Below are positions 8,780 through 64,000 of a stretch of 64,000 nucleotides of DNA, in pieces (position 1 is the stretch's first letter; each line of letters opens with the position of its first letter). This DNA comes from Candidatus Latescibacterota bacterium (GTDB taxonomy: Bacteria; Latescibacterota; UBA2968): assembly GCA_965198115.1 (NCBI GenBank), contig OZ240241.1, positions 3,392,001 to 3,456,000 on the forward strand. Direction: 5' to 3'. Under the pieces are notes generated by a model, which worked only from the letters and a program-made list of their open reading frames with translations, had not been told where the DNA came from and searched no databases. The position numbers and the translations under genes were made by a program.

Positions 8780-8785
8780 TCATCG

Positions 8786-13845: not shown

Positions 13846-16800
13846 TTGAGCTTTAAGCGATTCTGTTGGCGCGCCAACCAGCCGGGAATCCTCCTCGTAG
13901 CCCTCTTTACCCTGTGGGGAAGCCGTACGAGCGCCGAAATCGGCCTCGCAGCTCCCGATCCGCTCCGGATGGATCGGTTCGCGGCCAAACCCCCTCGCAA
14001 CCTCGCTCCCAAGAAGACCTGGCCCCCCCAGCACGACGTCACCCCCTCCCGTTTTCTCGACGTCGGGGCCCGTCTCCTCGAACAGGAATCGATGCGGATC
14101 ATGGTCTTCGAGGAGATGGGGGGCGTACCGCACGGGCTGCCCCTCGTCATGCAGCTGGCCGAATGGAACCGCCTCCGTCACCACCACGACGCCACGCGCT
14201 TCCTCACTGCCCAGCTTGGGCGCGAAATACGTCGTCGAGCGGGCGACCGGGGCGGTCTCGTCGACATTAAGATCCCATTCCGCGTACCCAAGGGGCTGAG
14301 CGCCCTCACCGGCGAGGGTGAAACTCGTCTGAACATTACCGCACGCCAGCGGATGGATCTTTCAGGCATCAGCCAGTTCACGGACGGCGAGGCCCAATCG
14401 GCGGCCACTCGGAATTCCAAGTTTCCGACGATCGCCTTCGAGCAGGAATCGCAAGTGAACGTCAACGGCGAGATCGGCGACAAAATCACCGTCAACCTCG
14501 AGCAGAATAGCAACCGGCAGCTCGACCTGAGCGAATCCCTCCGTCTACGCTACACCGGCGACGAAGACGCCATCATCCACACCGTTGAAGCGGGCAACAC
14601 GAACCTCAACCTCCCCGGCACCCGGCTCATCGGCTTCAACGCCGGCCGCGGCGGCCTATTCGGCATCAAGGGCGAAGGGACACTCGGCGGGTTCGACCTC
14701 ACCGTCGTCACCACGCAGGACAAAGGCTCGAGCAACCGCAAGACCTTCCAGGGCCAGGCCGAAGAGTTCTCCGACGAGATTCGCGATTTCGCCTATATGG
14801 AGAACGTCTACTTCTTCTTCGACCGGGTCCACCGTCGTGCCTTTCCCTACGAACCACCTGCCAGAGACCTGATCGACATCAACAGCGTCGACGTCTACGT
14901 CAACGACTTCAACGACCTGAACGACATCGAGGACCGTGCCTTTCCGGGTCTGGCCCTCAGCGTCTGGTCGAGCAACGGAACACCCGACGAAACGACGTCT
15001 CGCGAACGCCCCGGCGGCATCGAAGAGGGCGCGTTCCACCAGCTCGAACGGACAACCTACCAGATCGACCCGCGTGGGTATCTCGTTCTCACCAACACCC
15101 GCGTGTCGGGTGGCGCGGCCCTCGCGGTCGCCTACCGCACGACCGACGGCCGCAATTTCGGCGACGTCGGCTACATCCAGGGTGCGAACACGCCCCGCGT
15201 TCAGCTCAAGCTCCTCAAGTCGAAGAACCAGACGAGCAGCTCGGAGACGTGGGACCTCGCGTGGAAGAATGTCTACAGCCTGAGTGGTCGCAACATCGAG
15301 CCCGAAGGGTTCGACCTCCGCATCCTCAAGGAGATCCCCGGCCAGGAGGACCTCGACAGCGAGGGGGGCAAACCCTACATCCAGCTCTTCCAACTCGACA
15401 CCCACACGAACAACTCGTCGGCTTCCTCCCCCCCCGACAACCGGGTCGACACAGACAACGGCAACAACATTCCGGGCCTGAACCTGGCTCTCGGCCACCT
15501 CGTCTTCCCGTTCCTCGAACCCTTCGGCGACGCCGGATCGGACAGCGCCCCGATCGCCGAGCCAGTCCCCGAACTCTACACCGAGAACAACCGCACGACA
15601 CGGGCGGAAAAGAGCAAATACTTCATGCGCTTCACCTCTCGCAGCAGGGCCACGCGGTTCAACCTCGCGGCAGGCGTGATCGAGGGGAGCGAAGTCGTCC
15701 GCCTCAACAATCGCCAGCTCGTGCGCGGGACCGACTACACGATCGACTACAATTTTGGGTCCATCTCCTTCATCGGCGCCGCAGCCGACCAGGTGTCGGA
15801 CCCGACCGCCAACCTCAAGATCGACTTCGACTCGAAGGATCCTTTTGGCGGATTCGGTCAGCAGAAGAGTCTGCTCGGCGTACGCCTCGAGCACGCCCTC
15901 GACGACCAGTTCTCCTTCCTCGGCATGACGATGCTCTACAGCAGCCAGTCTACACCCGGGCAGCGCGTGCGGGTGGGGCAAGAGCCCGCTCGCACGTTCA
16001 TCTGGGACGCCAACGCGCGACTGCGCTACCGGCCCGAGATCCTGACCGACATCGTCAACTGGATTCCGTTCGTCAACTCATCACAGCAGTCTCAGATGGA
16101 CATCGATCTCGAGGTCGCCCAGAGCATTCCAAACCCCAACACCAAGGGAATCGCCTACGTCGATGATTTCGAGGGAACTCAGGAGGAGCTGCGATTCCCG
16201 ATCTTCAAAAACTCGTGGACGCAAGCGAGCACACCGGTCAGAAACGGCCGGGCTCTCGATTCCGACATCATCCGGAAGGGTCGTCTCACGTGGTACACGC
16301 CGATCACGCGCGATCGCATATCACAGCTCGAGATCCAGCCCAACCGCACCGACCTGACGACCGAGCAGGCCATCATCGACATCCTCCAACTCCGGTTCGA
16401 AGCCGCACGGACCCTCGGAGACGGCCTCCCCGGATTCCCCGATCGGATTCGGGACAACACACGGGGTCGTCCGGAAAACTCGTGGGCGGGGATTATGTCA
16501 AACCTGGGCGGCTGGGACCTCTCGCGATCCAAATTCCTCGAAGTCTGGATCAGAGGGTCCGGGGGCAAACTGCACATCGACCTGGGAGAAGTGTCGGAGC
16601 GGATCGACCTGCCACTGGGTGGCCTGAGCGACCAGTTCAGAACCGAGGATGAGCCGATCGGCGGGCTCCTCACGGGCGACGGCATCGCGACGGCAGCCGA
16701 GGACCTCGGACTCGACGGGCTCGCCGATCAAGAGGAGGCCGTTCTGTTCTCACAAAAATGGCCGGGCGTGCCCGTCCCCGACGACCCCGCGGGCGACAAC

Positions 16801-19800
16801 TTCGACGACGTGAACACCGACAGGGGTCGGAACGATCCCGACCGCTATCCATCGGGCCTCAACGGCACGCAAGGCAACAGCCCGGAGCGCAACTCCCTGC
16901 CCGACACGGAAGACCTGAACAAAAACGGCTTTCTCGACCAAGAGAATAACTTCGTCCGCTACAGCGTCGACCTCGCCACGGACCGAGGGTTCAACGCCGA
17001 ATCGGGCTCCTACACGGATGGCGTGTCCGTGCTCGTCGAGGGCACGCGATCGGACAGCTCCAACACACCGTGGCGTCTGATCCGCATCCCTCTTCGCGGC
17101 CAGCGGTCTCCCCGAACGATCGAGGGAACACCCGACACGACCTTCTCCTCGCTCATCGACTTCGCCAGGGTCTGGATCGAACACAACGCATCGCGAGAGG
17201 AGATTTCGATCTGGGAATTCAAGGCGGTCGGCAACGACTGGCAGGAGGACGATCAGCCTCCCACGAACATTTCCGGAGATTTCGAAGTCTCCAGCATCGG
17301 AACCGACAACCCGATCTACGTCCCGCCACCCAACCTCGAACTCGAACAGGACCCGACGACCGGCCTGATCCTCACGGAACGGTCGCTGGCCGTCAATTTC
17401 GAAGACCTGGCCGTCGGCGAGACGATCACGGCCTCCCGAACCTTCGTGCAGGGCGAGGACTACACGCGCTACAGCAAGATGCGTCTCTTCGTCCACGGCG
17501 GCGACAACCCCGACACCTTCCCCGCCCCACAGGACAGCGCCGGAGCGGGCCTCACACCGCTCGAGCTGATCCTCAAGTTCAGCCCGAGCAAGGGCGATAC
17601 ACTGAACGTCTACGAATTCCACCGGAGCGTCTACGAGGGCTGGGAGTCCAACACCCTCGAGATCGACCTCGAGCTGATGACCCAGCTCAAGGGTCAGCTG
17701 CTCGATTTTCGTACGGCCCGACTCGAGTCGGATTCGACGACCCTTTCGCTCTCAGCCGGCGAGATCCTCGTCGCCTACAGCAAGGAGCGAAACCAGATTC
17801 GGACACTCGGGCCCGAACCGACCTACATCGTGCGCGGAAACCCCTCGCTCAACCGCATCAAGTCCTTCACGCTCGGCCTCCACAACCGTTCGGACAGCGT
17901 GACGGTCGGGGGCGTCGCCCTCGTCGGTCGGCCGCTTTCGGGTGAGCTCTGGGTCGACGAGCTCACGGTCGACGGCATCCGTAAGAACAAGGCCATTTCG
18001 GCGCTCGCGAGCGTCAGGACCGTCCTGGCCGATCTCGGAAACCTCAACCTCGAACTCGAGCGTCGGAGCGGTGACTTCCAGGACTTGCAGGGGGCCGCCT
18101 CCGGGAACACGACGTCACGCATCGTCCTCAACACCGACATGAATCTGGACAAACTCTTGCCTCAACAGTGGCAGACGTCGATTCCCATACGCTACAGCTA
18201 CAATCGAACCAGTTCCGTACCTCGTATTCGCCGAGGGTCGGACATCGTGCTGACTTCAGATCAGCAAGCGAATGAGAGCGACGTCAACAGCCAAAGCCGG
18301 CTCAACCTGACGTTTCGAAAGCGGGCTGCACGTGAAGATCCGCGGCTCCTCTCCCTCGTGCTCTTCGATCGGGTCGATGCGTCGGTCAATCTCGTGAGCT
18401 CGAGCACCACGAACGGCGCCATCACCCGTCGCAGGGCGAACAAGAACGACCAGCTCACGGGCACGTTTAACTATAACCTGAACCTGCCACAGAAGAAATC
18501 GATCAAACTGTTCAAGTGGGTCCCGGTTTTCAAGTCCGTCAAGGAATCGGAATTCTTCTATCTTCCGTCGACCGTCCGCTACGGCATTCGGTTCAATCGA
18601 AACATTCGCGATCAGCGGGACTTTTCCGCCGTGCCAGGGGACACGCTCAACGCGCCGATTGAGACCCACACTGAGAACTTCAACCTGAACGAGAGCTACG
18701 ACATCAAGCTCCTCCCGTTCCGCAGCCTCACCGCCAACTACAAGCTCGGTATCGACCGCGACCTGCGTGGGGCGCTCAAGGTTTCGGGTCTGCAGTTCGG
18801 CCACGAAACCGGGCGCACACAGACCTTCACGGTCGGCTTCACACCCAAGATCTTTCGGTGGTTGACGACCAACGCGCAATACAACGCCAACTATCGCGAT
18901 AACCTCGAAACCGGCGGTCAGCGAATCGCCATCGGCAACCTTCGTCGCGGTCTGACGGTCAACAACCAGAATCAGGGCAGTCTGCGGCTCGGGTTTAACT
19001 TTGCCACGTTCTTCCGCGGTCTGGCCCGCCCCAAGCGCAATGTCTTCCTCCGCCTCATCGGCCGCGCCGGCGCAACCGTGAACAACGTGAACACCTCCGT
19101 CGCCCGGACAAAACGGCTGGGCCTGTTCGGCTTGAGGAAGAGGCCCTCGGCCGCGTATCAGTTCGGATTTGCGGACACGACGCAGGTGGCCACGTTCGAG
19201 ACGGGGGGCCTGACCCGCACCAACTCCAAGTCGGTTCAGGACCGCGCCGACGTCGGTGCCTCCATTCGCCTTCCTGCCGGGTTCAGCGTTCAGTCGAACG
19301 CCAACTACAACCACAACAGGACGTTCAACAACGCGAGCACCGAAGAGAAGCTGACGACCCTGCCCGACCTGAACTTTAGCTGGAGAGGCGTCGAGCGACT
19401 ACCGATTCTGCGCTGGCTCTGGACGAGTGGCAACGTGAACTCAAGTTTCCAGCAGTCCAAAACGAAACGTGGCGAGCCGGCCGTCCTCGACGGTGTTTTC
19501 CACGCTCTGGACACCCTCACGATCACCAACGATATTCGAGCCACACAGCTCAGCCCGATGGTTTCCCTTTCTACCCGCTGGAAGAACGGCATGTCGACGA
19601 CGGTTCAGACCACACGCACGAAGACGACGGACCTTCGTTTCCAGCGCAACATCCAAAAAAACGACGAGGGTCGCTTCCCCACCCAGGCAGAGCGCACGAT
19701 CGGAACGACGATCACCAGGGCGACGAACCTGCGTGCGCAGATGCGTTATTCCATCAAGCCCAGCATTTTTGGCACGTTGGAGAGCAACATCGATCTCGAC

Positions 19801-20094
19801 CTCACCTTCGACAGGACCGGGAACACGACGCTCGAAATTCCACGACAGATCGACGCCGTCCCCCCACCCGACCCCGATCCCAACACCGACCCGGACCCGA
19901 CAATTGATGAATCGGGCGGCCAGTTCCGGCGGAACGAAGCCAGCTGGCGAGCCCAGATCGGGGCACAGTATCGCTTCAGCAGCCACTTCACGGGAGGGAT
20001 GTCTTTCGGCCACCAGCGAAGACGCGACAAGCTGCGTGAGTTAACGAACCTCTCTTACGAGTTCCGGCTGTTCGGCGAGATCGAATTCAACTGA
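13846..20094 (+). CDS. sprA: SprA/Sov-like giant beta-barrel (type IX secretion translocon homologue), 2082 aa
   Basis: LRYTGDEDAII, GGLFGIKG, LKLLK, WDLAWKNVYSL, AYVDDFEG, SWAGIM, IDLGEVSE, DPAGDNF, LPDTEDLN, WRLIRIPL, GELWVDEL; amphipathic beta-strand C-terminus; start uncertain. Confidence 0.85.
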   Translation: MSFKRFCWRANQPGILLVALFTLWGSRTSAEIGLAAPDPLRMDRFAAKPPRNLAPKKTWPPQHDVTPSRFLDVGARLLEQESMRIMVFEEMGGVPHGLPLVMQLAEWNRLRHHHDATRFLTAQLGREIRRRAGDRGGLVDIKIPFRVPKGLSALTGEGETRLNITARQRMDLSGISQFTDGEAQSAATRNSKFPTIAFEQESQVNVNGEIGDKITVNLEQNSNRQLDLSESLRLRYTGDEDAIIHTVEAGNTNLNLPGTRLIGFNAGRGGLFGIKGEGTLGGFDLTVVTTQDKGSSNRKTFQGQAEEFSDEIRDFAYMENVYFFFDRVHRRAFPYEPPARDLIDINSVDVYVNDFNDLNDIEDRAFPGLALSVWSSNGTPDETTSRERPGGIEEGAFHQLERTTYQIDPRGYLVLTNTRVSGGAALAVAYRTTDGRNFGDVGYIQGANTPRVQLKLLKSKNQTSSSETWDLAWKNVYSLSGRNIEPEGFDLRILKEIPGQEDLDSEGGKPYIQLFQLDTHTNNSSASSPPDNRVDTDNGNNIPGLNLALGHLVFPFLEPFGDAGSDSAPIAEPVPELYTENNRTTRAEKSKYFMRFTSRSRATRFNLAAGVIEGSEVVRLNNRQLVRGTDYTIDYNFGSISFIGAAADQVSDPTANLKIDFDSKDPFGGFGQQKSLLGVRLEHALDDQFSFLGMTMLYSSQSTPGQRVRVGQEPARTFIWDANARLRYRPEILTDIVNWIPFVNSSQQSQMDIDLEVAQSIPNPNTKGIAYVDDFEGTQEELRFPIFKNSWTQASTPVRNGRALDSDIIRKGRLTWYTPITRDRISQLEIQPNRTDLTTEQAIIDILQLRFEAARTLGDGLPGFPDRIRDNTRGRPENSWAGIMSNLGGWDLSRSKFLEVWIRGSGGKLHIDLGEVSERIDLPLGGLSDQFRTEDEPIGGLLTGDGIATAAEDLGLDGLADQEEAVLFSQKWPGVPVPDDPAGDNFDDVNTDRGRNDPDRYPSGLNGTQGNSPERNSLPDTEDLNKNGFLDQENNFVRYSVDLATDRGFNAESGSYTDGVSVLVEGTRSDSSNTPWRLIRIPLRGQRSPRTIEGTPDTTFSSLIDFARVWIEHNASREEISIWEFKAVGNDWQEDDQPPTNISGDFEVSSIGTDNPIYVPPPNLELEQDPTTGLILTERSLAVNFEDLAVGETITASRTFVQGEDYTRYSKMRLFVHGGDNPDTFPAPQDSAGAGLTPLELILKFSPSKGDTLNVYEFHRSVYEGWESNTLEIDLELMTQLKGQLLDFRTARLESDSTTLSLSAGEILVAYSKERNQIRTLGPEPTYIVRGNPSLNRIKSFTLGLHNRSDSVTVGGVALVGRPLSGELWVDELTVDGIRKNKAISALASVRTVLADLGNLNLELERRSGDFQDLQGAASGNTTSRIVLNTDMNLDKLLPQQWQTSIPIRYSYNRTSSVPRIRRGSDIVLTSDQQANESDVNSQSRLNLTFRKRAAREDPRLLSLVLFDRVDASVNLVSSSTTNGAITRRRANKNDQLTGTFNYNLNLPQKKSIKLFKWVPVFKSVKESEFFYLPSTVRYGIRFNRNIRDQRDFSAVPGDTLNAPIETHTENFNLNESYDIKLLPFRSLTANYKLGIDRDLRGALKVSGLQFGHETGRTQTFTVGFTPKIFRWLTTNAQYNANYRDNLETGGQRIAIGNLRRGLTVNNQNQGSLRLGFNFATFFRGLARPKRNVFLRLIGRAGATVNNVNTSVARTKRLGLFGLRKRPSAAYQFGFADTTQVATFETGGLTRTNSKSVQDRADVGASIRLPAGFSVQSNANYNHNRTFNNASTEEKLTTLPDLNFSWRGVERLPILRWLWTSGNVNSSFQQSKTKRGEPAVLDGVFHALDTLTITNDIRATQLSPMVSLSTRWKNGMSTTVQTTRTKTTDLRFQRNIQKNDEGRFPTQAERTIGTTITRATNLRAQMRYSIKPSIFGTLESNIDLDLTFDRTGNTTLEIPRQIDAVPPPDPDPNTDPDPTIDESGGQFRRNEASWRAQIGAQYRFSSHFTGGMSFGHQRRRDKLRELTNLSYEFRLFGEIEFN

Positions 20095-26302: not shown

Positions 26303-27268
26303 ATGAAGCGATTGCGCTACAACACGTGGCAGGACCTGGCCTGGTATGGGATCACGCTGAGCGTCCCCGACGAATGGAACCCGGGCCAGCTGGTGGGCGA
26401 TCCCCGGTCGGGGAACGTCCGGCTCGACGACGCCCAGATCGTACGTGTCGAGGTCGAATGGAAAGAGGCCGGAGGAAACCCCGAAGTGGCCAGAATCGTC
26501 GACCGATACGTCGAGGGCCTGGCCAAGAACGCCCAGAAGCAGAAGCAGGCCCTCAGCGTCGAGCGCCGCGTCCCGATCGATGGGCTTGGCCACTCGGCGC
26601 TCTCCGGTGCGGAATGCTTCCGATGGAAGGGCACATTCGAAGTCACCACGCTCGCGGGCTACAGCGAAATCACCGACCGGCTGCTTTTCATCCGCGTGAT
26701 GAACCGCCCCGACGAAGACGCCAACGAGCTCCTCGCCGACCTGTTCAATTCTGTGGGCGACACCGGGCCAGACGACTGGCAGCCCTGGGGGCTTTACGGC
26801 CTGACGTGTCGAACACCACCGGATTACCCCCTCGAGGAATACGATCTCAAGTCGGGTCACATCCGGCTGCTGTTCAAGAAGGACAAAGCACTCCTCCGGA
26901 TCGACCGGCTGAGCCTCGCGCGAACGCTCCTGTCGGGCAGCACCCTCGCTGACTGGTATCGGGACTTCTTCGCCAAGGACCTCCGCTTCATCGACACGGA
27001 CATCCACGATCAGAACGATGGAACGATCACGATCGACGGAGCTCCGAAAGGGCGTGTCCAGAGTCTGCTCCAGCCCCTCCCCTTCTGGAACACACGCCCG
27101 AGGCTCTTCCTCGACGGCCGTGCGTGGGTCTCCGACGAGGAAAACAAGATCTTCGCCCTCCAATCCTTCTACGCCCGCGAGGAAGATGCCCCGAACCTCG
27201 ACCGGATCCAGGCCACGATGTCCGAACCAACCGCGGCCGAGCCCCTAGGATCGAACGAGCGTGCTTAA
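26303..27268 (+). CDS. Hypothetical cytoplasmic protein with a two-fold internal repeat (possibly PsbP/DcrB-like fold)
   Basis: WQDLAWYGITLSVPDEW…SGNVRL versus WQPWGLYGLTCRTPPDY…SGHIRL. Confidence 0.6.
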   Translation: MKRLRYNTWQDLAWYGITLSVPDEWNPGQLVGDPRSGNVRLDDAQIVRVEVEWKEAGGNPEVARIVDRYVEGLAKNAQKQKQALSVERRVPIDGLGHSALSGAECFRWKGTFEVTTLAGYSEITDRLLFIRVMNRPDEDANELLADLFNSVGDTGPDDWQPWGLYGLTCRTPPDYPLEEYDLKSGHIRLLFKKDKALLRIDRLSLARTLLSGSTLADWYRDFFAKDLRFIDTDIHDQNDGTITIDGAPKGRVQSLLQPLPFWNTRPRLFLDGRAWVSDEENKIFALQSFYAREEDAPNLDRIQATMSEPTAAEPLGSNERA

Positions 27269-46448: not shown

Positions 46449-46847
46449 TTAACTTCCCTCCCCCTCTTCATCCTCGGACTCACCGTCTCCACCATCCTTG
46501 GCCTTCTCTCGCTTCTCTCGAAACTCTTTCACTTTTTTTATGATGTCAGGCGCCAACCCAATCAGCTTTTCGATCGACATCCCCGAGTCCTCGAGCGGCA
46601 TGATCTGAGCCTTGCCCTTGTGGATCACGATGAAGGCGACCGGTTCGACAGAACCACCGCCCCCTGTTCCGGCTCCCCCATCCTCTTTTTTCCCCTTGCC
46701 ACCTCCTGCGCCAAAACCGAACGAAATCTTTGACACGGGGACAATCACAGTCTCTTCGAACGCGATCGGCTTCCCGACGATCGTTTCGGTCTTGGCAATC
46801 TCCTTGAACTCCTGGAGAACAGTTTTGATGATGTCTTCGAGTGACAT
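46449..46847 (-). CDS. YtfJ/GerW family protein
   Basis: TETIVGKPI, IVPVSKISFGFGAGGG, GGGGSVEPVAFIVI. Confidence 0.85.
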   Translation of the reverse strand: MSLEDIIKTVLQEFKEIAKTETIVGKPIAFEETVIVPVSKISFGFGAGGGKGKKEDGGAGTGGGGSVEPVAFIVIHKGKAQIMPLEDSGMSIEKLIGLAPDIIKKVKEFREKREKAKDGGDGESEDEEGEGS

Positions 46848-46858
46848 ACGTCTCTCCT

Positions 46859-47545
46859 TCAGGCAGCCTGGGCGCGGGACCGACGCCACTCACTCGTGCG
46901 ACGCGTCAGAACCATCGCCAGATAACCCCAACCGAGCACCACGGCTGCGCGAACCACTGCTACGATGAGTCGAGCCAGGTGAAACGTCAAATCGACACGC
47001 AGGGACCCACGAAACCCTGAGAGCTGGAAGTCCGGCACGACATCGAGCTGCAGCCGATCGGAGGTGACGTCATCGATGGCGCGCAGGTAGCCGAAAAGGC
47101 TGCCCGTCGTTTCTGCCCTGTTCCCTCCGTATCGTCCACGGACCTGAAGCCTGCGAAAGCGGATCACTCCCCGAAGCCGCCGCAGAAACCGAAGCGCCGG
47201 ATCCCGAAATCGCCGATCGTATTCGAGCACCTCGTCGATACGTTGGCGCCACCCCTTCTCGGTCTCGGGCTCCTTTTCCGGTTTAGCCGGTTTGGCCGGT
47301 CTGGGTTTCTTGACCTTTGGTTTCTCACCGGGCCGAATCGTCCAGACGGGAAACCCCACAACAACAGGACGAATCTCCAACACCTCGTCGGCCCACGTGA
47401 CCCGCGCCGACAAAGCCCCGAGGGCCAGGACCACGCGTCCGGCGGCCACGACGCCTTCCTCCGACAAGACCCCCGAAACTCGAATTCGAACCGGAATCAG
47501 GACAATCGAAGCGGCCAGCGCCAGAATCAGGTATACGATGAGCAT
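46859..47545 (-). CDS. DUF2953/YtfI-like membrane protein
   Basis: N-terminal TM, AETTGSLFG, VVPDF; sits in the usual position upstream of ytfJ. Confidence 0.65.
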   Translation of the reverse strand: MLIVYLILALAASIVLIPVRIRVSGVLSEEGVVAAGRVVLALGALSARVTWADEVLEIRPVVVGFPVWTIRPGEKPKVKKPRPAKPAKPEKEPETEKGWRQRIDEVLEYDRRFRDPALRFLRRLRGVIRFRRLQVRGRYGGNRAETTGSLFGYLRAIDDVTSDRLQLDVVPDFQLSGFRGSLRVDLTFHLARLIVAVVRAAVVLGWGYLAMVLTRRTSEWRRSRAQAA

Positions 47546-56005: not shown

Positions 56006-57379
56006 GAGTTCAGGTCAATAGGTGTGTAAAAGAAATCAGGCGGCCATCTTCCCGGCTTCGACCTGCGGTTCGGTTGAGTGTTTCTGATCGTAGACTTGTT
56101 GTAGCAAGTGTGGCGCGGTGAGTTTCCTGAATCGGCTCTCTGCGACCTTGAGCGTACGCCAGATGAGAGTCGTGGCGTTCCTGACTTTCTTGAATCGCCT
56201 GGCGGCGTTTGTGCGAAGCCGAACGGAAGCAAAGGGGCTCTCGACGACGTTCGTGGTTCTCAGGTGTTTCCAGTGTTCCTTCGGGAAGTCGTAGAACGTG
56301 ACCATCCGATCCCAGTCTCTTTCGAGCGTCTCCACGGCGGCAGGGAACTGTGAGCGATACCGTGCGGCAAAGCGTTTCCGGAGCTTCTCGGCCTCCTTTT
56401 TCGTGCCGGCATAGGGGATCTGGACGAGCAGTGCGCGGGCTTCAGCCTGTGCACGCTTGGCGACCTTGTCGAGCACGTTGAGGATCTTGTGGTTCCAGCA
56501 CCGTTGTTGCCGGCTCTCTGGCCAGACCTGATCAACGGCCGCCCAGATGCCCATATTCCCGTCCGCGGCGATCAGGACAGGATGTTCGAGCCCGCGATCC
56601 CGGAGATCCCGGAGCACCGTGAGCCAGGATTCTGTAGACTCTCGATAACCGGGTTCTATCGCCAGGATCTCCTTGCTGCCGTCGCTCATCGCGCCGATCA
56701 CGACCAGCAGACACGCCTTCTCGCGCTCGAGCCCGGCTTTGACGTAGATGCCATCAGCCCAGGCGTAGACCAGTTCGCGATTATCCAGACGCCTTTCTTT
56801 CCAGTCCTGGAAGTCGACCTCCCACTTCCCTCGAAGACGAGCGATCGAGGTCGGCGAAAGCGGCGCGCCATCACCGAGCAGCGCACGCAAAGACAACTCG
56901 AAGTCGCCCTGGGAGAGACCGTGGAGATAAAGGTCGGGAAGCAGATCTCCAATGGCCCTGGTTCTCCGGGCGAACAGGGGGAGGATGCGGCTTTCAAACC
57001 GCTCTTCCAGACCACGAACCCGGGGACGCCGGACCTTGATCGTTCCGCAGCTCGTCGAGAGACGCCGGGGCTTGCCGTAGCCGTTCCTGTAGCCCCTGGA
57101 GCTATCGACCTCGGCTCGGCGCTCATACCACGACCGGCCCAAGAACGCGGTCGCCTCCTCCTCCAGAATGGACTGGAACCGGCCCTGGATCTCTTCACGG
57201 ATCCAATCGTCAACCGTCTCCCACGTCGGCATGGACTTCAATGGGGCTCTATGCGTATGTTCCTTCACGGCGATCCTCCTTCCCAACCGGGCCTCTCACC
57301 CGGTTTTGTGTGAATCAACTATCTCACGGGAAGGGTAGGGTCGCCCTTTCTCTTTTTCCACACCTTTTGATTATAGCTC
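56006..57379 (-). mobile_element. IS256 family insertion sequence, apparently intact
   Basis: Imperfect terminal inverted repeats GAGTTCAGGTCAATAGGTGTGTAAAA / GAGCTATAATCAAAAGGTGTGGAAAA; 8-bp target duplication AAAAGGGC at 55998-56005 and 57380-57387. Confidence 0.92.
56036..57268 (-). CDS. IS256 (Mutator-type DDE) transposase
   Basis: YRNGY, WADGIY, ESTESW, ADG, QRCWNHK, LRTTNVVES; GGAGG RBS before GTG 57268. Confidence 0.92.
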   Translation of the reverse strand: MKEHTHRAPLKSMPTWETVDDWIREEIQGRFQSILEEEATAFLGRSWYERRAEVDSSRGYRNGYGKPRRLSTSCGTIKVRRPRVRGLEERFESRILPLFARRTRAIGDLLPDLYLHGLSQGDFELSLRALLGDGAPLSPTSIARLRGKWEVDFQDWKERRLDNRELVYAWADGIYVKAGLEREKACLLVVIGAMSDGSKEILAIEPGYRESTESWLTVLRDLRDRGLEHPVLIAADGNMGIWAAVDQVWPESRQQRCWNHKILNVLDKVAKRAQAEARALLVQIPYAGTKKEAEKLRKRFAARYRSQFPAAVETLERDWDRMVTFYDFPKEHWKHLRTTNVVESPFASVRLRTNAARRFKKVRNATTLIWRTLKVAESRFRKLTAPHLLQQVYDQKHSTEPQVEAGKMAA

Positions 57380-57431: not shown

Positions 57432-58628
57432 TCAGTCGATCACATCCGCGATACTTCCGCAAAGATATTCGACATTCTCTTCTGTGACACCGGCGACGTT
57501 GATCCGACCGCCCGTCTTGACGACGTAAATCGCGTGCTTCTCACGCAGGGCGTCTACCTGGGCGGGCGACAGCCCTGAATAAGAAAACATCCCCTTCTGC
57601 CGGGCGATGTAAGAAAAGTCTCGCCTCACACCCGTCCGTTCGAGCGTGTCGACCAGCAACTTGCGGACACCGTTGATTCGATCGCGCATGGCCGTCACCT
57701 CGCTCTCCCATTCCTGCCGAAGCTCGGGGTCGTTCAGCACAGCCGTCACGATCGACGATCCGTGTGCGGGAGGATTGGAATAGTTCGTACGAATGGTGAT
57801 CAGCAGGTGGCTCAGCGCCCGTGCCGCGTCGATTGGAGATTGGGTCACGAGCGTGAGGGCGCCGATTCGCTCACGGTAGAGCCCGAAATTTTTACTGAAC
57901 GAACTGGCGATGAACATCTCGTCGACGTTCGCCACGAGCGTCCTCAGTCCAAGGCCGTCCTGTTCGAAACCTTCCCCCAAACCCTGATAAGCGAAGTCCA
58001 GCAAAGGGATCAGACCACGCGAACGAACGATGTCCGCAACCGTCTCCCACTGAGCCGCCGACGGGTCCATACCCGTAGGGTTGTGACAACAACCGTGCAG
58101 AAGGACGACGTCCTCCACCGGGATCTCGTTCAATGCACCGGCAAAGGTATCGAAGTCGAGCGCGTTGGCGTCGACATCGTAGTAGGGATAGGTTTTCGTC
58201 GCGAGGTGGGCGGCGTCGAACACTTTTGGGTGATTGGCCCACGTCGGATCGCTCAGCCAGAGTGTGGCGTCCGGATAGAGCTTCTGAATGAAGTCACCGG
58301 CAACCCGAAGCGCCCCCGTACCCCCCGGTGTCTGGACCGTACACACCCTTTCGTCAGAAATGACAGGATGTCCTTCGCCGAAGAGAAGGGCCTGGACGGC
58401 GGCCCCGTAGACCGGATCGCCCGAAATCGGGAGGTAGCTTTTGGTCTCTTCGGCCGCCAGAGCTCGTGTTTCGGACTTCTTGACCGATTGGAAAACCGGC
58501 GTCTGTCCGTTGGCATCTTTGTAGACACCGACGGTCAGGTTGATCTTGTTGGGATTGGGATCGTCGTTGAAAGCCGCCGTCAGACCCAGGATCGGATCAG
58601 GCGGCGCCTGTTCGAGTTGGTCAAACAT
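57432..58628 (-). CDS. aspC: Aspartate/aromatic aminotransferase (AspC/TyrB type)
   Basis: APPDPILGL, KINLTVGVY, TPGGTGALR, CCHNPTG, DFAYQG, SFSKNFGLYRER. Confidence 0.9.
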   Translation of the reverse strand: MFDQLEQAPPDPILGLTAAFNDDPNPNKINLTVGVYKDANGQTPVFQSVKKSETRALAAEETKSYLPISGDPVYGAAVQALLFGEGHPVISDERVCTVQTPGGTGALRVAGDFIQKLYPDATLWLSDPTWANHPKVFDAAHLATKTYPYYDVDANALDFDTFAGALNEIPVEDVVLLHGCCHNPTGMDPSAAQWETVADIVRSRGLIPLLDFAYQGLGEGFEQDGLGLRTLVANVDEMFIASSFSKNFGLYRERIGALTLVTQSPIDAARALSHLLITIRTNYSNPPAHGSSIVTAVLNDPELRQEWESEVTAMRDRINGVRKLLVDTLERTGVRRDFSYIARQKGMFSYSGLSPAQVDALREKHAIYVVKTGGRINVAGVTEENVEYLCGSIADVID

Positions 58629-58718
58629 CCTCTGCATCCTCTGGCAAAGGGTTCCCTGCGTGCGCCGAAAGATACTGAGCCCGCAACAACCGGACAAGCT
58701 CCGGGACCCAGAACCTTC

Positions 58719-61176
58719 TCAGGCGATACACCCTTCGAGCAGCCTGATGACTAACCGTTTGTGCTCGACCCGCATCAGGTTGTCCAACAGTTCGAGGGCG
58801 TTCGACTGGCGATCCTTCTCGGCACTGATCAATCCCACGTAGGCACGCGTCACGTCTTCGCGGGGGTAGATCAGTCCCAATAGCCCGACCACAATCCGCA
58901 GTCTGTGGTCCTTCCCTTCGGCCGTGGTCGGAACACCGGCGTCCGTTTCCTTTCGAATCGCTCGGGTCACCTTCTCCTCGTCAATCTCCAGATTTTCGAC
59001 GCGGGCGTTGATCTCTCCGAGCGCCTCGAGGATCGAAAGACCCAACTCATCCTGGTGCTTTTCCAGAATATCGAGCAGCGTGTCGGCCGCGGCCTGAGTA
59101 CCGATGGCTGCGTAGCACTCAGAAACGGCGCGCCGAATCGCGATCGATTCTTGTGGGTCATCCACATAGTCACGGAGGGCGTGGACGACCCGATCCCCGT
59201 AGCCACGAATCGCGCGCTGAGCATAAATCACGAGGCCCTCGTCGGCCAGGTGCGGAACGACCAGCGGCAGAAAAACGCGACGGCCCGTACGCGACGTGCC
59301 CTCGAGCGCGGATCGAACGACAACGGGGGAATTGTGGCGTAGCAGTTGCATCATCAGATCGTCGTATTCGGGATCGTCAATGGTCCCCAGAATCAGTGCC
59401 ACTTCGGCGGCTGCATCCTCGTCGCCGTAGTCGGGTCCGCACGCCTCCCCGAGCGAATCACGCACCTTCTGCTTTTCCATCGATTCGTTCAGGGCCAGCG
59501 ACCCGATTGCTGCAATACGAACGCGCGAATCCTCATCCTCCAGCAGACTGTTGAGTTTGGCCCCCAGGTATGGGCGCCCGTAGAGACACAGGTAGCGCAC
59601 GGCGATCACCCGTACATCGGCGTTCCCCGAATCGAGCATCGCCTCGGCTTCTTTGACGCACTGGGCCTGAGATTCCTGCCCGAGGACACTCAGGGCTTCG
59701 GCCCTGACCGTTTCTGAAGGATGAGATCGGGCCGCTCGTTCCAGGCCCTCGAGAACCGAAGACTTGTCGTGCATCAAGTCTAGCATCGCCAACGCGCTCA
59801 GTGCCGCGGTTTCATCGGGGTCGTCGAGCTGTTCTGAAAGCAGATCGACCGTGCCGGTGTCCAACACCTCCGCCGCCCGATCCTGAGACTCGCCCGAAAC
59901 ATCAGCGAAGAAGCTTCGCACCGTACTCAGGTATTCCCGTCGGATCACGAAAACAGCAATGAACCAACCTCCAATAATGACCAGCGAGATGATGCTGAGC
60001 ATGCGTATCTGCAGACCCATCACAGCGGTGAAGAACAGGATCATCAATCCGCCCAGACCGTCGAACAATCGAGTACCGAACATATCGATCAAGGGCCGTA
60101 CACGGGCGCGCACTTTCGACGGAAGCGGGAGATACAGGACCTCGAACGTGGCTTCCTGAAGCGAATAGCGAATGCCGCCCTCGGCGAATTTGGAGGCGCT
60201 CGCCACGAGCAACGTGGGATAGATGAGGAATCCGACAGCACCCGTTGACAGAGCGAGGGGCAGCAACACGAGCGAGAAACCGACGCCGAATCGCAGGAGC
60301 AGGTAGCGCGTCCCGATCAGCTGGATGAACAAGGCAATCACGTTCTGGGCGGCAAAGAACTTCGCGAAGAATGACGTCTTTTCGTTCGCAGACGCGAAAG
60401 CTTCGCTCGTCACCGTCTGGAACTGAACATCGAGGATAGCCGACGCGATCATGCTGGCACCGAGGATGGCACCGATCAGCTTGATGTGACGATGCTCCTT
60501 GAGCAGGTCGAGTGCGGACCCTTCGACCGGCTCTTCCGGCCTTTCCGCGCGGCGCTTCGCATCGGCTCTCTCCAGCTTGATCACAAGGGGCAGCATCAGA
60601 ATCATCGCAGCCACCGATACGTAGAGCAGGTTCTCGGTACCGACTCGATCGACCACACGGAACACGATCGTCGGCCCCAGGATGCCACCGATCGTCCCGC
60701 CGGCTCCGACGACGCCGAACAGACGCTTGGCCTCGCGCGGCGTGAACTGGTTTCCGGCCACCAGCCTGAATTGCGTCAGTAGAATCACCGAAAAGAGCTG
60801 TACGAAGACGTAGAACGGCAACGTCACCCAGTCCCCGGCTGTCTCGAACAGCTGGCGGAACAGGAGGAGGAAAGGCCATGAGCGTGAGGGTCGTCGTCAG
60901 GACGGGGGTTCGACTGTCGTAGAGATCTCCTACGTAATCGACCGCCCAGACGAGGAGCCCCGTGACGACCGCCGTAAGCACCATCGCGACGGGGAGCCAG
61001 TCCGGCCCAAGACGGTCGAGCAGCAGTGAGTTTCGCGTCGGCTTCAGCGTCGTGAACGCCGTGAGCGCGAGCATGTAGTAGACCGAGAGCAAGAGGGCCA
61101 CTCGGTTCTCGGGACGGGACAGATCGAACACACTCGCAAGACGGGAAGCACCCTGTTGTTCTCCTGCCAAAAGCAT
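58719..61176 (-). CDS. NTT/Npt (ATP/ADP translocase-like) transporter fused to HEAT repeats; one extra base near 60872
   Basis: LKPTRNSLLL, REAKRLFG…GGTIGG, FQTV, RYSLQEATFEVLYLPLP…RARVRPLID; C-terminal VRAEAL/VRIAAI/VVRSAL HEAT units; removing one T from TTT gives …AFLLLFRQLF… in frame. Confidence 0.78.
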
Positions 61177-61203
61177 TCCTCCTGTGACCTACAAACGTGA
61201 AAG

Positions 61204-61546
61204 TTAGGATGCTTTCACTGGCAAGCGCACCGTCGATCGACTCGGCCGTCTGGAAGACGGCAGCCAGACGTGTCACACGCATGATGCTCTGCACCTTTGG
61301 GGTCATTCCCGACAAGCGAAACTGGCCTTCCGCCTTCTGTACCGACATCAAACTCGCGGACAGAACTCCGAGCATCGAACTCCCGAACCACTGAACCTCA
61401 CTCAGGTCCACGACGACGTTGGCCACGCCCTCGGCGACCAGAGTCTTGACCTCGTCGAGGAGGGGCGCCACTTCGGGTCCGCTCATCATGCTACCCGATA
61501 ACGCCAGCACCGCGGCATCCTCGTGCATCTCTCGTCGAATATCCAC
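61204..61546 (-). CDS. STAS domain anti-sigma-factor antagonist (stop displaced by a probable indel near 61217)
   Basis: VVVDLSEVQWFGSSMLGVL with the conserved phospho-Ser position; KVQSIMRVTRL; TAA at 61204-61206 lies out of frame. Confidence 0.8.
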
Positions 61547-61561
61547 GCCAGCCCCTTTCGG

Positions 61562-63790
61562 TTAGTTTTGCGTGCCTGCCAGCCACCGGCGCCAGGCATC
61601 GGCATCATCGCCGAGTCGTTCGTCCGTCGTCGTCCGGAGCGCCCGAAGCGCGAACATCCGGACCCCCCGATCTTTGTCTTCGAGCGCCTGAATCAGTCCC
61701 TCGACCCCGGCACGCGCCTTCAGCCGGCCGAGGCCGATGGCAGCTGCCCGCCGGATGGGTACCGCCTCGTGGCGCAACACCGAGACGAGCGCCGGTGCGA
61801 TGGACGTGTCGCCGGACAGACCAAGAGCTTCGACCGCCTCTACAAGGAGCTTCCCGTCGAGCTCAGGCAACACACCGGCGATCGATTCCGCAGCCCCGGC
61901 AAACAGCTTTCGCTCGATGGCTCCTCGAATCGCTGCTCCGCGAACCTCCGCATTTTCGTCCAGGATTGCCCCAAAGAGGGCAACGTTCGAACCGTCGTGA
62001 GAAACGAGAGCCCGAACGACCGCCAGCCTGACACTCGGGTCGGGATCCGCAACCGCCTTGGCCAGGGCCGAAACGGACGACGGGTCCGGCGAAAGCTGAA
62101 GTCCCTTGGCCGCAAGTCGCCGGACCTCGACATCCTCGTCGGACAGACGTGCGCGAAGACCGCGCGAAGATCCGGCGATCCCCATTCCCCAGACCGCCCA
62201 CCGTCTGACCGCGGGCTCCGCATCTGCCAGGAGATCGTGAAGCACCTCCGCACTCTCGCTCGTGCCCGCCCGCGCCACGGCTTGGGCAACCGCTGCTCGC
62301 GTCGCCCCATCGGCATCGCCCGTATACGGGCGCACGTGCGAAACAACGCGAGGCAACCCGGTGCGGCCGAGCTCCTCGATCGCCATCTTGCGCTCCGCCG
62401 TCGATCCCTCGAGATGGCCGGCCAGCGTCTCGACGTAGGTGTCGTCGTCGTGAAGCGTCAGCGCATCGATCGAACGACCCTCGACATCGTAGACATCCAG
62501 GTCCAGCCGTCCACCCCGGATGGTGATCGTGCAGTAGTGCGGCACACTCTCGGACACCGCAGTCCAACTGCTTCGTCCAACCTTATAAAGTGGAGCCCCT
62601 CCTCCGCCTGACACGACCTGTACCACCCCCCGATCGACGCGCTTGTCGCCGCGTAGCGGCCACGTTCTTTCGTAACAATGCTCGTGCCCCGTCAGAACTA
62701 CATCCACGTCGAGTCGCTCGCACAGAGGAACGAGATTCCGCCGGATCGTGAGATTGCTCTTGTGGTAACCGCTGCTGTAGGCCGGGTGGTGCACGACGAC
62801 GAACTTCCATCGGGCCCGACTCGACGCCAGATCCGTCTCGAGCCACACGCGTTGCTCGGTCCCGGCCTCGAGCTCGCCCGATTCGTCGTTTGTGTCGAGC
62901 ACCGCGAAGTGCGCGGGGCCGTAGTCGAACGCATACCACGCCTCGGGCCGCTTCGTAGAACCGTTCGGGGACACTTCGAAGTAGCTGTAGTAAAGCGCGC
63001 TGTCCTTTTCGTGGTTTCCGATGGCCGGATAGATCGGAGCCCGTAAACCGAGCGGGCGAGTGGGCTCGAAATACATGGGCCCCCACTCGGCTTCGACGCG
63101 TCCATCGTTCACAAAGTCTCCCGAATGAATCACGAAATCGAAGGAATGGGTCAGAATCCGCTCGACCACTCGAGTGTGCGTCTTCGGATTCGAACGGCTG
63201 TCCCCATAGAGCGCGAACGTCACTGTCGAATCAGCCGACGCGTTCGTCCTGAATCGTCCCTGAGCGCTGCTGACGCCGTGTGCCGTCACCCGGTAATGGT
63301 AGGGCGTGCCGGGAGTCAGGCCTTCGAACCGAACGCGCCCCTCTCCCCGCTGTTCAACGGCATCTTGACCGTCGGCCTCCAGAAACACGGACGCCTCCGC
63401 CGACGGCGCGACGCCCCACAGGATCGACGTCTCCGTTTCTGTGACGTGCTGCGCATACGGCCCCCTATCGAACCAGACCCCCGCAATGAAGGACGCTTCC
63501 GCTTCGCTCCCCGCCGATGCGACACGGTAGTGATACGTGCGTCCCGGCCTCAGACCGTCCAGAACGACCCGGTGCTCGGTCACGAGGTTCTGGTCGGCCA
63601 CCTCCGCGCCAAAGCTCGGCGTGATCCCGTACGCCACTCGTGAGTCACCGGGTTTTTCCGTCGCCCACGAAATGGCCGCCGCATCCCGTCCGACCGTCTC
63701 TACGTGGGGACCTCGAACAATCCGTACGTCTTCGGCGCACGCTGCAAGAGCAACGAAGCAGAAGGCCGTGCGGATCAGGTGTCTCGTCAT
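61562..63790 (-). CDS. Lipoprotein: two FN3-like domains + purple-acid-phosphatase-type metallophosphoesterase + HEAT repeats
   Basis: Lipobox LAAC; GLRPGRTYHYRV and GLTPGTPYHYRV; GDSR, GDFV, GNHE, HH, GHEH; several VRRxAxxxL HEAT units. Confidence 0.82.
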   Translation of the reverse strand: MTRHLIRTAFCFVALAACAEDVRIVRGPHVETVGRDAAAISWATEKPGDSRVAYGITPSFGAEVADQNLVTEHRVVLDGLRPGRTYHYRVASAGSEAEASFIAGVWFDRGPYAQHVTETETSILWGVAPSAEASVFLEADGQDAVEQRGEGRVRFEGLTPGTPYHYRVTAHGVSSAQGRFRTNASADSTVTFALYGDSRSNPKTHTRVVERILTHSFDFVIHSGDFVNDGRVEAEWGPMYFEPTRPLGLRAPIYPAIGNHEKDSALYYSYFEVSPNGSTKRPEAWYAFDYGPAHFAVLDTNDESGELEAGTEQRVWLETDLASSRARWKFVVVHHPAYSSGYHKSNLTIRRNLVPLCERLDVDVVLTGHEHCYERTWPLRGDKRVDRGVVQVVSGGGGAPLYKVGRSSWTAVSESVPHYCTITIRGGRLDLDVYDVEGRSIDALTLHDDDTYVETLAGHLEGSTAERKMAIEELGRTGLPRVVSHVRPYTGDADGATRAAVAQAVARAGTSESAEVLHDLLADAEPAVRRWAVWGMGIAGSSRGLRARLSDEDVEVRRLAAKGLQLSPDPSSVSALAKAVADPDPSVRLAVVRALVSHDGSNVALFGAILDENAEVRGAAIRGAIERKLFAGAAESIAGVLPELDGKLLVEAVEALGLSGDTSIAPALVSVLRHEAVPIRRAAAIGLGRLKARAGVEGLIQALEDKDRGVRMFALRALRTTTDERLGDDADAWRRWLAGTQN

Positions 63791-63804
63791 TCGCACCCTC
63801 GACT

Positions 63805-63999
63805 CTACCCAGAGCTCATGAGTGGAAGCGGGAACATCACTTCGTCCTCGCCGTAAGTCGCGATACGCTCATCGACCATTTTCAAAAGGTTCTGCACACG
63901 GGCCCAGAGCGCGTCGGTTTGATAGCTCTTCAGATACTTCCGCAAGGCCCTGTGGAGCTTCTTCTTTTCCAGCGTCCGAAGCGCTGCGATGGGCTCGCG
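63805..63999 (-). CDS. C-terminal 64 aa of a gene truncated by the window edge; resembles the tail of secreted atypical (Fam20/PI3-4K-fold) kinase-like proteins
   Basis: REPIAALRTLEKKKLHRALRKYLKSYQTDALWARVQNLLKMVDERIATYGEDEVMF…*; the family assignment is pattern recall only. Confidence 0.4.
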   Translation of the reverse strand, partial: REPIAALRTLEKKKLHRALRKYLKSYQTDALWARVQNLLKMVDERIATYGEDEVMFPLPLMSSG

Positions 64000-64000
64000 G

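Follow-up and report, generated by a model that had tools for sequence, protein, structure and literature searches.

At the end of the 64,000-nucleotide stretch of Latescibacterota DNA that we analysed (the window) lies a minus-strand operon in which a putative kinase gene is followed by co-oriented genes for a metallophosphoesterase, a STAS-domain protein and an NTT-type carrier, with a TPR gene ahead of the kinase. The features are given below in window positions or, for those reaching or lying beyond its edge, also in genome coordinates.

57432..58697, minus strand: aminotransferase class I/II gene (aspC-like), directly downstream of the carrier (Pfam)
58719..61176, minus strand: carrier of the NTT/TLC family ending in a C-terminal HEAT tail; a frameshift near 60875 divides the gene (Pfam TLC and HEAT)
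61204..61546, minus strand: STAS-domain protein that has lost its stop, with homology over about 112 aa (Pfam STAS, TIGR00377)
61562..63796, minus strand: predicted lipoprotein metallophosphoesterase with HEAT repeats, intact (Pfam; full-length alignment to three orthologues)
63805..64000, minus strand: 3' end of the putative kinase gene, the remainder past the window edge
G000:C1:3455805-3456614: the whole putative kinase gene, 269 aa, intact, running past the window edge
G000:C1:3456611-3457675: fifth gene, for a TPR protein predicted to be exported, with an in-frame TGA, directly upstream of the kinase and outside the window

A reading of the window made from its letters alone (the sequence-only reading) had described four tightly packed genes with gaps under 30 nt, and the gaps are indeed 8 nt (kinase/phosphoesterase), 15 nt (phosphoesterase/STAS) and about 27 nt between the NTT start and an out-of-frame TAA (61206-61204). 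Pfam confirmed the domains it had assigned: an NTT-like protein with HEAT repeats (TLC, E 4.8e-11), a STAS protein (STAS, E 3e-10) and a lipoprotein metallophosphoesterase with HEAT repeats (Metallophos, E 1.6e-19). A promoter and terminator scan gave nothing above shuffled sequences (1 promoter versus 2.0 expected). The aspC-like aminotransferase is probably not part of the mechanism considered below. Intact orthologous operons with the same parts are present in relatives (L089 and L096/L097); in one of these, L089, an aspC-like aminotransferase gene also lies 3' of the carrier. Insertion sequences lie on both sides of the operon here.

Three of the five operon genes (carrier, STAS and TPR) are damaged in this genome, and the kinase and phosphoesterase genes are intact. 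The N-terminal ~99 codons of the carrier, at 61176-60880, lie in another frame, and the two frames align to residues 14-80 and 99-804 of an intact 811-aa orthologue; the gene also carries a W-to-R change in its QFW motif, where W is found in 30 of the 31 covering sequences. Lacking a stop at the point where the orthologues terminate, the STAS frame reads on to 60824. The TPR gene is a single frame with one nonsense codon. An assembly error behind the NTT and STAS lesions is unsupported, and such slips are unlikely, because contigs from two runs matched 58500-64000 with 0 differences and 0 gaps. Both runs come from a single sample, which may be the source itself; a third run had coverage at neither lesion, and the region compared does not reach the TPR stop. 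With these three genes damaged, this copy is probably no longer functional as a unit. The sequence-only reading had alluded to a 'repaired NTT' and was otherwise silent on this decay. We regard the operon as a decaying copy of a probable extracytoplasmic phosphorylation module, mainly useful as a pointer; the L089 and L096 operons are better experimental material.

The gene cut off by the window edge is complete in the genome and encodes a protein with a hydrophobic N-terminus and with DRxxxN and IDN motifs. From its tail, the sequence-only reading had suggested a Fam20/PI3-4K-fold kinase, and profile searches, an AF2 model, Foldseek and VIA-align all agree with that suggestion. Pfam PI3_PI4_kinase matched just under its cut-off (E 1.3e-5), and a single-sequence PDB search gave only matches at E 0.27-1.4; a profile was needed, and that of the kinase family matched Fam20A, Fam20C and the Fam20 xylosylkinase at E 3e-11 to 7e-6. 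The AF2 model (pLDDT 90) had Fam20C and Hydra Fam20 as its best Foldseek matches (TM 0.63-0.65). VIA-align placed it closest to Hydra Fam20 (5xom; Z 19.4, rmsd 3.4, 238 residues aligned), followed by Fam20C (Z 18.7), PI4KII-alpha (17.0), CtkA (14.6), CotH (11.3) and HipA (10.7). The match to TIGR03843 (E 2e-8) reached 33.9 bits, far below the 172.4-bit cut-off, and Pfam Fam20C (PF06702) did not match this kinase at E<=0.1; one homologue, P0121, passes the PF06702 cut-off. The catalytic residues are intact (K55, K70, D92, E97, D168, R169, N173 and D186), and of 268 homologues 266 retain D168, 264 N173 and 267 D186; the equivalent of K70 is K in only 110 of the 268 and Q in 104. Together these comparisons predict a Fam20/PI4K-II-type atypical kinase fold for the 269-aa protein, which would presumably act as a kinase.

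The export signal that the earlier proposal needed is present as a signal-peptide-like start, called by a hydropathy heuristic, not SignalP. An N-terminal hydrophobic stretch was found in 216 of 232 single-domain homologues versus 2-3 of ~232 control stretches of equal length inside the core, which suggests that the kinase is likely exported from the cytoplasm. With 1,109 clusters at 50% identity (E<=1e-30), the family is a large one; it resides mostly in uncultured Acidobacteriota and is largely unnamed; acidobacterial look-alike clusters in the ESM Atlas carry the automatic names 'PI3K/PI4K'. Within Latescibacterota the full-length kinase is patchily distributed (3 of 151 genomes).

The phosphoesterase consists of two FN3/PAP-N domains, the Metallophos domain and C-terminal HEAT repeats (Pfam), and with its lipobox-like LAAC it is likely an exported lipoprotein. 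Its closest solved relatives are the diphosphonucleotide phosphatase 3zk4 (E 1.5e-10) and plant purple acid phosphatases, which have the same FN3-like N-domain (Pur_ac_phosph_N) and a calcineurin-like domain with metal-binding motifs; the motifs GNHE, HHP and GHEH/GHDH are present in the alignment with three orthologues. The Tyr ligand of purple acid phosphatases sits in GDxxY, whereas the sequence is GDFVN here and GDFVD, GDFVY and GDFVN in the three orthologues. That 3zk4, the nearest of these, acts on nucleotides rather than proteins counts against the phosphorylation module proposed below. Metallophosphoesterase and kinase are fused in 17 of the 26 longer kinase-family matches scanned. Among 80 GTDB kinase loci, a Shewanella-type phosphatase occurs in 15 and the PAP type in 2; BLAST found no similarity between the two types, and different enzymes therefore occupy the same slot.

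The TPR gene lies beyond the window edge and hence was invisible to the sequence-only reading. Pfam recognised TPR_12 in both pieces of the broken gene. For the orthologue pair from L004, the predicted TPR-kinase complex scored 0.82 and the best of three controls 0.00; the mark used for this score is reached by 116 of 157 solved complexes and by 2 of 215 mismatched pairs. The runs agreed in at least 90% of contacts, and the pLDDT of the partner was at least 84. In these models the interface covers the catalytic-loop face of the kinase (residues 167-177), and the TPR protein is predicted to cap the active-site face.

The sequence-only reading had proposed that carrier, kinase and phosphatase belong together, and NTT genes do recur with the kinase and with exported phosphoesterases far above random placement. 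An NTT lay within the fetched flank in 17 of the 80 GTDB kinase loci, and these loci are scattered through the kinase tree (a quick tree gives 12 changes, at least 9 of them forced). In a sample of 121 Acidobacteriota genomes, 20 of 87 kinase genes were at most 10 kb from an NTT (1.4 expected), about 14-fold over random placement, and 14 of 30 kinase-positive genomes held such a pair (1.3 expected). NTTs were present in all 30 kinase-positive and in 23 of 91 kinase-negative genomes, a co-occurrence inflated by shared ancestry. The remaining 67 of the 87 kinase genes had no NTT within 10 kb, and 16 of 53 NTT-positive genomes had neither this kinase family nor the second one described next; NTTs therefore have other jobs as well. 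The second exported family has weaker similarity to Fam20 (Foldseek E 7e-6; TM-scores low, 0.2-0.3 over 555 aa). NTTs were found in 21 of its 24 genomes, with 8 of 38 genes at most 10 kb from one (0.6 expected), and elsewhere in this genome the family lies beside phosphoesterase and NTT genes. The two families did not match significantly in a profile-to-sequence comparison (probability 0.2%), and their kinship would rest on aligned DR...N and ID motifs together with separate fold searches.

In our view the operon points to a system of periplasmic phosphorylation that has not been described. ATP would leave the cytoplasm through the NTT-type carrier, and the exported Fam20-fold kinase, bound to its exported TPR partner, would use that ATP to phosphorylate a periplasmic or surface substrate, which could be protein or glycan. 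The lipoprotein metallophosphoesterase would take the phosphate off again. The HEAT tail of the carrier, presumably cytoplasmic, and STAS would have a regulatory role here, gating the carrier; in acidobacterial versions a cyclic-nucleotide-binding domain and HEAT would do so instead of STAS. We infer both the cargo, ATP, and the direction of its transport, and we give a periplasmic phosphorylation module fuelled in this way an even chance of being correct.

The sequence-only reading had also assigned STAS a role in partner switching. The protein, 46-53% identical to its orthologues, matches the TIGR00377 anti-anti-sigma model at 53.6 bits versus a cut-off of 53.45. No anti-sigma kinase, PP2C phosphatase or sigma factor was found in the operon or its scanned orthologues, only 8 of 80 loci have STAS close to the kinase, and partner switching gained no support. 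We reject STAS as the substrate of the kinase for reasons of compartment: it has no signal and so would be cytoplasmic, out of reach of an exported kinase.

The reading that competes best with ATP export keeps the kinase-phosphoesterase pair extracytoplasmic and takes the NTT homologue to be an inward carrier of another solute (ADP/AMP, a cyclic nucleotide, the phosphorylated product of the kinase or another phosphorylated or nucleotide-like molecule) or a sensor signalling through HEAT to STAS or a cNMP-binding domain; we think this unlikely, yet worth serious weight. The carrier is a TLC protein (PF03219, above cut-off) fused to HEAT repeats (58719-60827). By counting on the profile alignment, in which a single offset brings K, E, E and K to AtNTT1 positions 155, 245, 385 and 527 (E385 being another key residue), the positions of K155, E245 and K527 are M, Q and D in this gene. 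Across the carrier family, the Lys of K155 is found in 1 of 32 sequences, the Glu of E245 in 1 of 30 and the Lys of K527 in 9 of 30; the orthologues have E at the last of these positions. The available text of earlier studies reports that K527E in AtNTT1 abolishes ATP binding (PMC3306366), that the equivalent K446E in PamNTT1 blocks phosphate co-transport (PMC2606016) and that Simkania NTT4, an NTT homologue, showed no nucleotide transport in assays (PMC5381601). The loss of these residues weakens the case for ATP supply by the carrier and favours the rival; an R/K three residues before the K527 position, present in 30 of 30 sequences, may compensate. Also on the rival's side, regulatory-type HEAT, cNMP-binding or STAS domains are attached to or beside the carrier in most loci scanned, and Hanks-type kinases neighbouring in 17 of the 80 loci, together with a sensor histidine kinase encoded in L096, suggest signalling islands. 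Against it, solved ATP/ADP carriers (9j3n and 9j3j, E 2e-46 and 2e-43) match the carrier profile across the whole membrane domain and are by far its closest solved relatives, glucose-6-phosphate exchangers reaching only E 3e-4; the basic residues in TM1 and TM11 are kept; single-domain NTTs without HEAT occur inside kinase operons (L047, L063 and L081); and a link common to two exported kinase families is most simply explained by ATP demand. Counting against ATP export in turn, the text available to us reports ATP in the periplasm of E. coli, which has no carrier of this kind (PMC7432876), and a dedicated carrier is therefore not strictly needed.

Kinase, phosphoesterase and carrier might share no pathway and be co-located only through common mobile signalling islands, as the many kinase genes away from any NTT, the variable gene order and the insertion sequences around this copy would allow; the excess of close linkage, its recurrence across the kinase tree and in the second family, the true phosphoesterase-kinase fusions and the NTTs in every kinase-positive genome make this improbable. 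We give least credence to the kinase being an exported effector or toxin against other cells, with the TPR protein as an inhibitor or immunity protein blocking the active site and the carrier link secondary: the predicted interface, the fold relative CtkA (which we take to be such an effector) and the patchy distribution fit it, but the TPR gene was found only beside the Latescibacterota-type kinase clade, interface residues differ in distant homologues, one-chain phosphoesterase fusions suit a reversible cycle better, and no variable-tip, secretion-system or immunity-array pattern was conspicuous among the recurrent neighbours.

Returning to the ATP-fuelled module, its general form falls just short of even odds in our judgement: Acidobacteriota and Latescibacterota would share a dedicated periplasmic cycle, a bacterial counterpart of Golgi Fam20 signalling, in which ATP-exporting NTTs under HEAT, STAS or cyclic-nucleotide control serve at least two exported Fam20-fold kinase families opposed by exported phosphoesterases, one clade being steered by TPR proteins. 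Two questions meet here, the role of NTT(-HEAT) proteins in free-living bacteria and the route of ATP to the periplasm, which is called unclear in the accessible text of PMC7432876. Because the genes are linked, both can be addressed with a handful of small proteins that lend themselves to expression. If true, free-living NTT(-HEAT) proteins would gain a function, the kinase-free view of the periplasm would be overturned and the origin of Fam20 kinases would acquire bacterial relatives; a bacterial minimal Fam20 domain bears on the source of animal secretory-pathway kinases.

A literature search, mostly without subscription papers, found no description of this kinase-NTT-phosphoesterase system. 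Type II phosphatidylinositol 4-kinases, CtkA, HipA, CotH and SCO1664/TIGR03843 have the same fold as the kinase here, and none of them is known to us to be paired with an NTT carrier or with a cognate phosphoesterase that is exported. The carrier has the domain architecture of the NTT-HEAT(-cNBD) fusions (Major, Embley and Williams 2017), described in the available text as widespread, monophyletic and uncharacterised, with an open function in free-living bacteria and proposals of thylakoid, heterocyst or host ATP exchange; the main text makes no mention of exported kinases or phosphatases encoded nearby (PMC5381601). It is homologous over the whole membrane domain to canonical ATP/ADP translocases (AtNTT1, PamNTT1 and chlamydial NTT1) but differs in the loss of K155, E245 and K527, in its HEAT tail and in the proposed export instead of import. 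In the accessible text of a Fam20 review, 'bacteria' occurs only in a reference title (PMC7948968), and that of a survey in Legionella describes the FAM20 cluster as specific to eukaryotes or metazoans (PMC9758233). The Fam20 kinases (the casein kinase Fam20C, the xylosylkinases Fam20B and Hydra Fam20, and the pseudokinase Fam20A) are the best structural and profile matches to the kinase described here; their AEIAA..LD..L, DR and LDN/IDN motifs align with it, and an export signal, predicted in the bacterial protein, is common to both. Known Fam20 targets are S-x-E proteins and proteoglycan xylose. The bacterial protein differs in being a minimal domain of ~245 aa, at most 23% identical, in having Asn (N173) in place of Glu in DRxxx[E/N], and in being encoded together with a phosphoesterase, a TPR partner and a carrier.

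At the end of the window the sequence-only reading had placed four closely spaced minus-strand genes, encoding an NTT-family nucleotide carrier with a HEAT tail, a STAS protein, an exported phosphoesterase with HEAT repeats and a kinase-like protein cut by the window edge; we found them as described, with gaps of 8, 15 and ~27 nt. The source genome (G000) is one contig of 8.4 Mb, on which the window spans C1:3392001-3456000, and the close homologues that bear names belong to Candidatus Latescibacterota. When we examined the sequence beyond 64000, which that reading had singled out, the cut-off gene was complete at 269 aa and overlapped by an upstream TPR gene. The operon is therefore TPR-kinase-phosphoesterase/HEAT-STAS-NTT/HEAT, directly followed by an aminotransferase gene, and is flanked by transposases:

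window 56036-57286 and 8767-9943 of locus L001: IS256-type and IS630-type elements flanking the operon

Of the five genes, only those for the kinase and the phosphoesterase are free of damage: an in-frame TGA interrupts the TPR gene, STAS has lost its stop, and the carrier is frameshifted near 60875, with a W-to-R change within its QFW motif. Contigs from two runs (one sample) reproduced 58500-64000 exactly. G000 carries ~148 near-identical IS256-type and ~73 IS630-type copies, suggesting a recent IS expansion; these numbers fit general decay. A full-length NTT-HEAT remains at the second NTT/kinase locus of G000. Elsewhere in the window we noted a 2,082-aa protein with an SprA_N (T9SS translocon-related) domain (13846-20094), a 321-aa ORF near NADH dehydrogenase genes that has no Pfam match (26303-27268), and a YtfJ (GerW-like) sporulation-family protein with an adjoining unknown membrane protein (46449-47545); we know of no spore formers among the relatives of G000.

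The 269-aa protein matched Pfam PI3_PI4_kinase slightly under the cut-off (E 1.3e-5). A profile of 117 sequences (116 of 119 further homologues among the matches listed, plus the query) hit Fam20A, Fam20C and Fam20 xylosylkinase best (E 3e-11 to 7e-6), with PI4K type II next. Foldseek searches with the AF2 model (pLDDT 90) gave Fam20C and Hydra Fam20 as best matches, and VIA-align scored Fam20s at Z 19.4, 18.7 and 17.7, PI4KII-alpha at 17.0, CtkA at 14.6 and CotH at 11.3. Among 268 sequences the catalytic residues D168 (266), N173 (264) and D186 (267) are conserved, and the K70 position is K in 110, Q in 104 and R in 37. The proposal that the upstream gene encodes a kinase-like protein holds up: its predicted fold is of the Fam20/PI4K-II type. 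Export is likewise indicated by a hydropathy heuristic (not SignalP): a hydrophobic N-terminal stretch occurs in 216 of 232 single-domain homologues, a set leaving out 14 N-truncated sequences and those >450 aa, and control stretches of equal length were hydrophobic in 2-3 of ~232. At E<=1e-30 the family forms 1,109 clusters. It is rare in the phylum of the window, where 3 of 151 genomes have a full-length match and 2 more a partial one; in Acidobacteriota, where 30 of 121 genomes carry it, it is common. Relatives also encode more distant PI3/4K-fold proteins whose genes do not adjoin an NTT gene (L090:3626-4468, L091:7856-8443), one with a lipoprotein-like start.

We then counted neighbours. 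Flanks of the best 80 of 264 GTDB kinase loci held NTT (17), a Shewanella-type exported phosphatase (15), a purple acid phosphatase (PAP) type (2), STAS (8) and a Hanks kinase (17); the neighbour profiles were seeded from the same loci, Pfam confirmed representative members, and many contigs are short. Eighty metagenome kinase loci, only 22 of which reach at least 6 kb, gave NTT 6, phosphatase 6, STAS 4 and PAP 2. Metallophosphoesterase-kinase fusions made up 17 of the 26 longer matches scanned, and BLAST found no similarity between this kinase-fused type and the window's phosphoesterase, a predicted lipoprotein of the PAP type that occupies the phosphatase slot in this operon. As a sample independent of neighbourhood, 121 Acidobacteriota genomes were searched with both kinase and carrier profiles. 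NTT was present in all 30 kinase-positive genomes versus 23 of 91 kinase-negative ones, counts inflated by shared ancestry. The proposed recurrence of NTT with the kinase held up: 20 of 87 kinase genes had an NTT no more than 10 kb away, where random placement predicts 1.4, and 14 of 30 genomes had such a pair, where it predicts 1.3 (13 of 29 without the seed genome). When 94 kinases were placed on a quick tree, proximity to an NTT had to change state 12 times, with at least nine of these changes forced, so the link is not an accident of a single clade.

Other arrangements were also seen. In Aminicenantes-type loci (L047, L053, L063, L072, L081) two or three kinase paralogues occur together with a phosphatase and, in many cases, a single-domain NTT, while STAS and frequently more NTT genes lie nearby on the opposite strand; genome G091 has five consecutive kinase matches. 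One kinase clade lies directly 3' of a Hanks-type Ser/Thr kinase gene with no NTT there (L007, L008, L011, L014, L016, L018, L019, L070), and database proteins P0212 and P0253 join both domains in a single frame.

Related operons are intact in L089 (TPR-kinase-STAS-NTT/HEAT-aminotransferase, the carrier being 811 aa long) and in L096/L097, near-duplicates of the same locus (TPR-kinase-sensor histidine kinase-phosphoesterase/HEAT-NTT/HEAT-STAS). L003 reads STAS-small gene-TPR-kinase-NTT/HEAT, its carrier interrupted by a transposase-like ORF (judged by eye); L004 reads STAS-TPR-kinase-phosphoesterase/HEAT, with NTT no nearer than 26 kb; the short contig L002 holds TPR-kinase-phosphoesterase/HEAT. 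In all eight close-clade loci examined upstream (our own, L002, L003, L004, L089, L096, L098, L100) the TPR gene is immediately 5' of the kinase. Complex prediction for the intact L004 pair scored 0.82 (top control 0.00), against a mark that 116 of 157 solved complexes reached, as did 2 of 215 mismatched pairs; this calibration is rough here as our own alignments were used; at least 90% of contacts agreed between runs, with partner pLDDT of at least 84. The predicted interface sets the catalytic-loop face of the kinase against mainly the C-terminal half of the TPR protein. On the kinase side of the interface, several residues (PRYG loop, W158, R199) are kept within the clade and different in distant homologues. 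These models support a predicted binding of the kinase by the TPR protein, either as adaptor or as inhibitor. A close STAS paralogue (49%; L095:9423-9791) lies in another gene context, ahead of formate-dehydrogenase-like genes (judged by eye). A PAP-HEAT paralogue (34% identical; L094:9288-11126; G000:C1:2437300-2439100) seems to lack a signal peptide and has no kinase or NTT within its 20-kb locus.

G000 also contains a second module, broken up by transposase-like ORFs:

G000:C1:6083500-6094200 (locus L092): Omp85 - metallophosphoesterase - 555-aa exported protein - NTT (in pieces) - NTT/HEAT - cNMP-binding protein

The 555-aa protein has DR...N and ID motifs and no Pfam match. The top Foldseek matches of its model (pLDDT 93) were Fam20 structures (E 7e-6) with low TM-scores, hinting at a weakly Fam20-like fold. 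Its family, without a Pfam name, has >1,000 homologues, and 102 of 120 have a hydrophobic N-terminus. It occurs in 14 of 41 relatives' genomes (own counted), all 14 with NTT, and within 10 kb of NTT in G000, G005, G011, G012, G014 and G036; in the Acidobacteriota sample, 21 of 24 genomes with the family have NTT, and for 8 of 38 genes the distance to it is no more than 10 kb, versus 0.6 expected. A third carrier (L093; G000:C1:4549700-4552700), NTT-HEAT-cNMP of 1,004 aa, is followed after 1.6 kb by a SpoIIE/PP2C-domain gene; we saw no kinase near the carrier.

The observation of the operon genes is confirmed, and the module is conserved; we found no description of a kinase-carrier-phosphoesterase module in the searchable literature. 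The main text of Major et al. 2017 (PMC5381601) calls NTT-HEAT fusions uncharacterised and leaves a kinase link unmentioned. A Fam20 review covers animals and describes one fold handling protein and xylose substrates (PMC7948968), and in a Legionella survey certain bacterial kinases fall close to the FAM20/CotH group, yet the FAM20 cluster is labelled eukaryotic (PMC9758233).

The best single explanation, with about an even chance of being right, is that the NTT-type carrier would export ATP for the likely exported Fam20-fold kinase; the nearest solved relatives of the carrier family are ATP/ADP carriers. The main rival is that the carrier moves a different cargo or acts as a sensor. Against the ATP step count the substitutions at key carrier residues, the absence of either kinase family from 16 of 53 NTT-positive Acidobacteriota genomes, and the reported occurrence of periplasmic ATP in E. 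coli without such a carrier (PMC7432876). By our own residue mapping, K155 and E245 of the plastid exchanger AtNTT1 are not conserved in the carrier family, and the K527 position is D in the window's carrier, E in orthologues and K in only 9 of 30 sequences; K527E is reported to abolish ATP binding in AtNTT1 (PMC3306366), and K446E to block phosphate uptake in PamNTT1 (PMC2606016). Three residues ahead of the K527 position, however, Arg/Lys is invariant (30/30) and a basic pair is retained in TM1, so a rebuilt site is possible.
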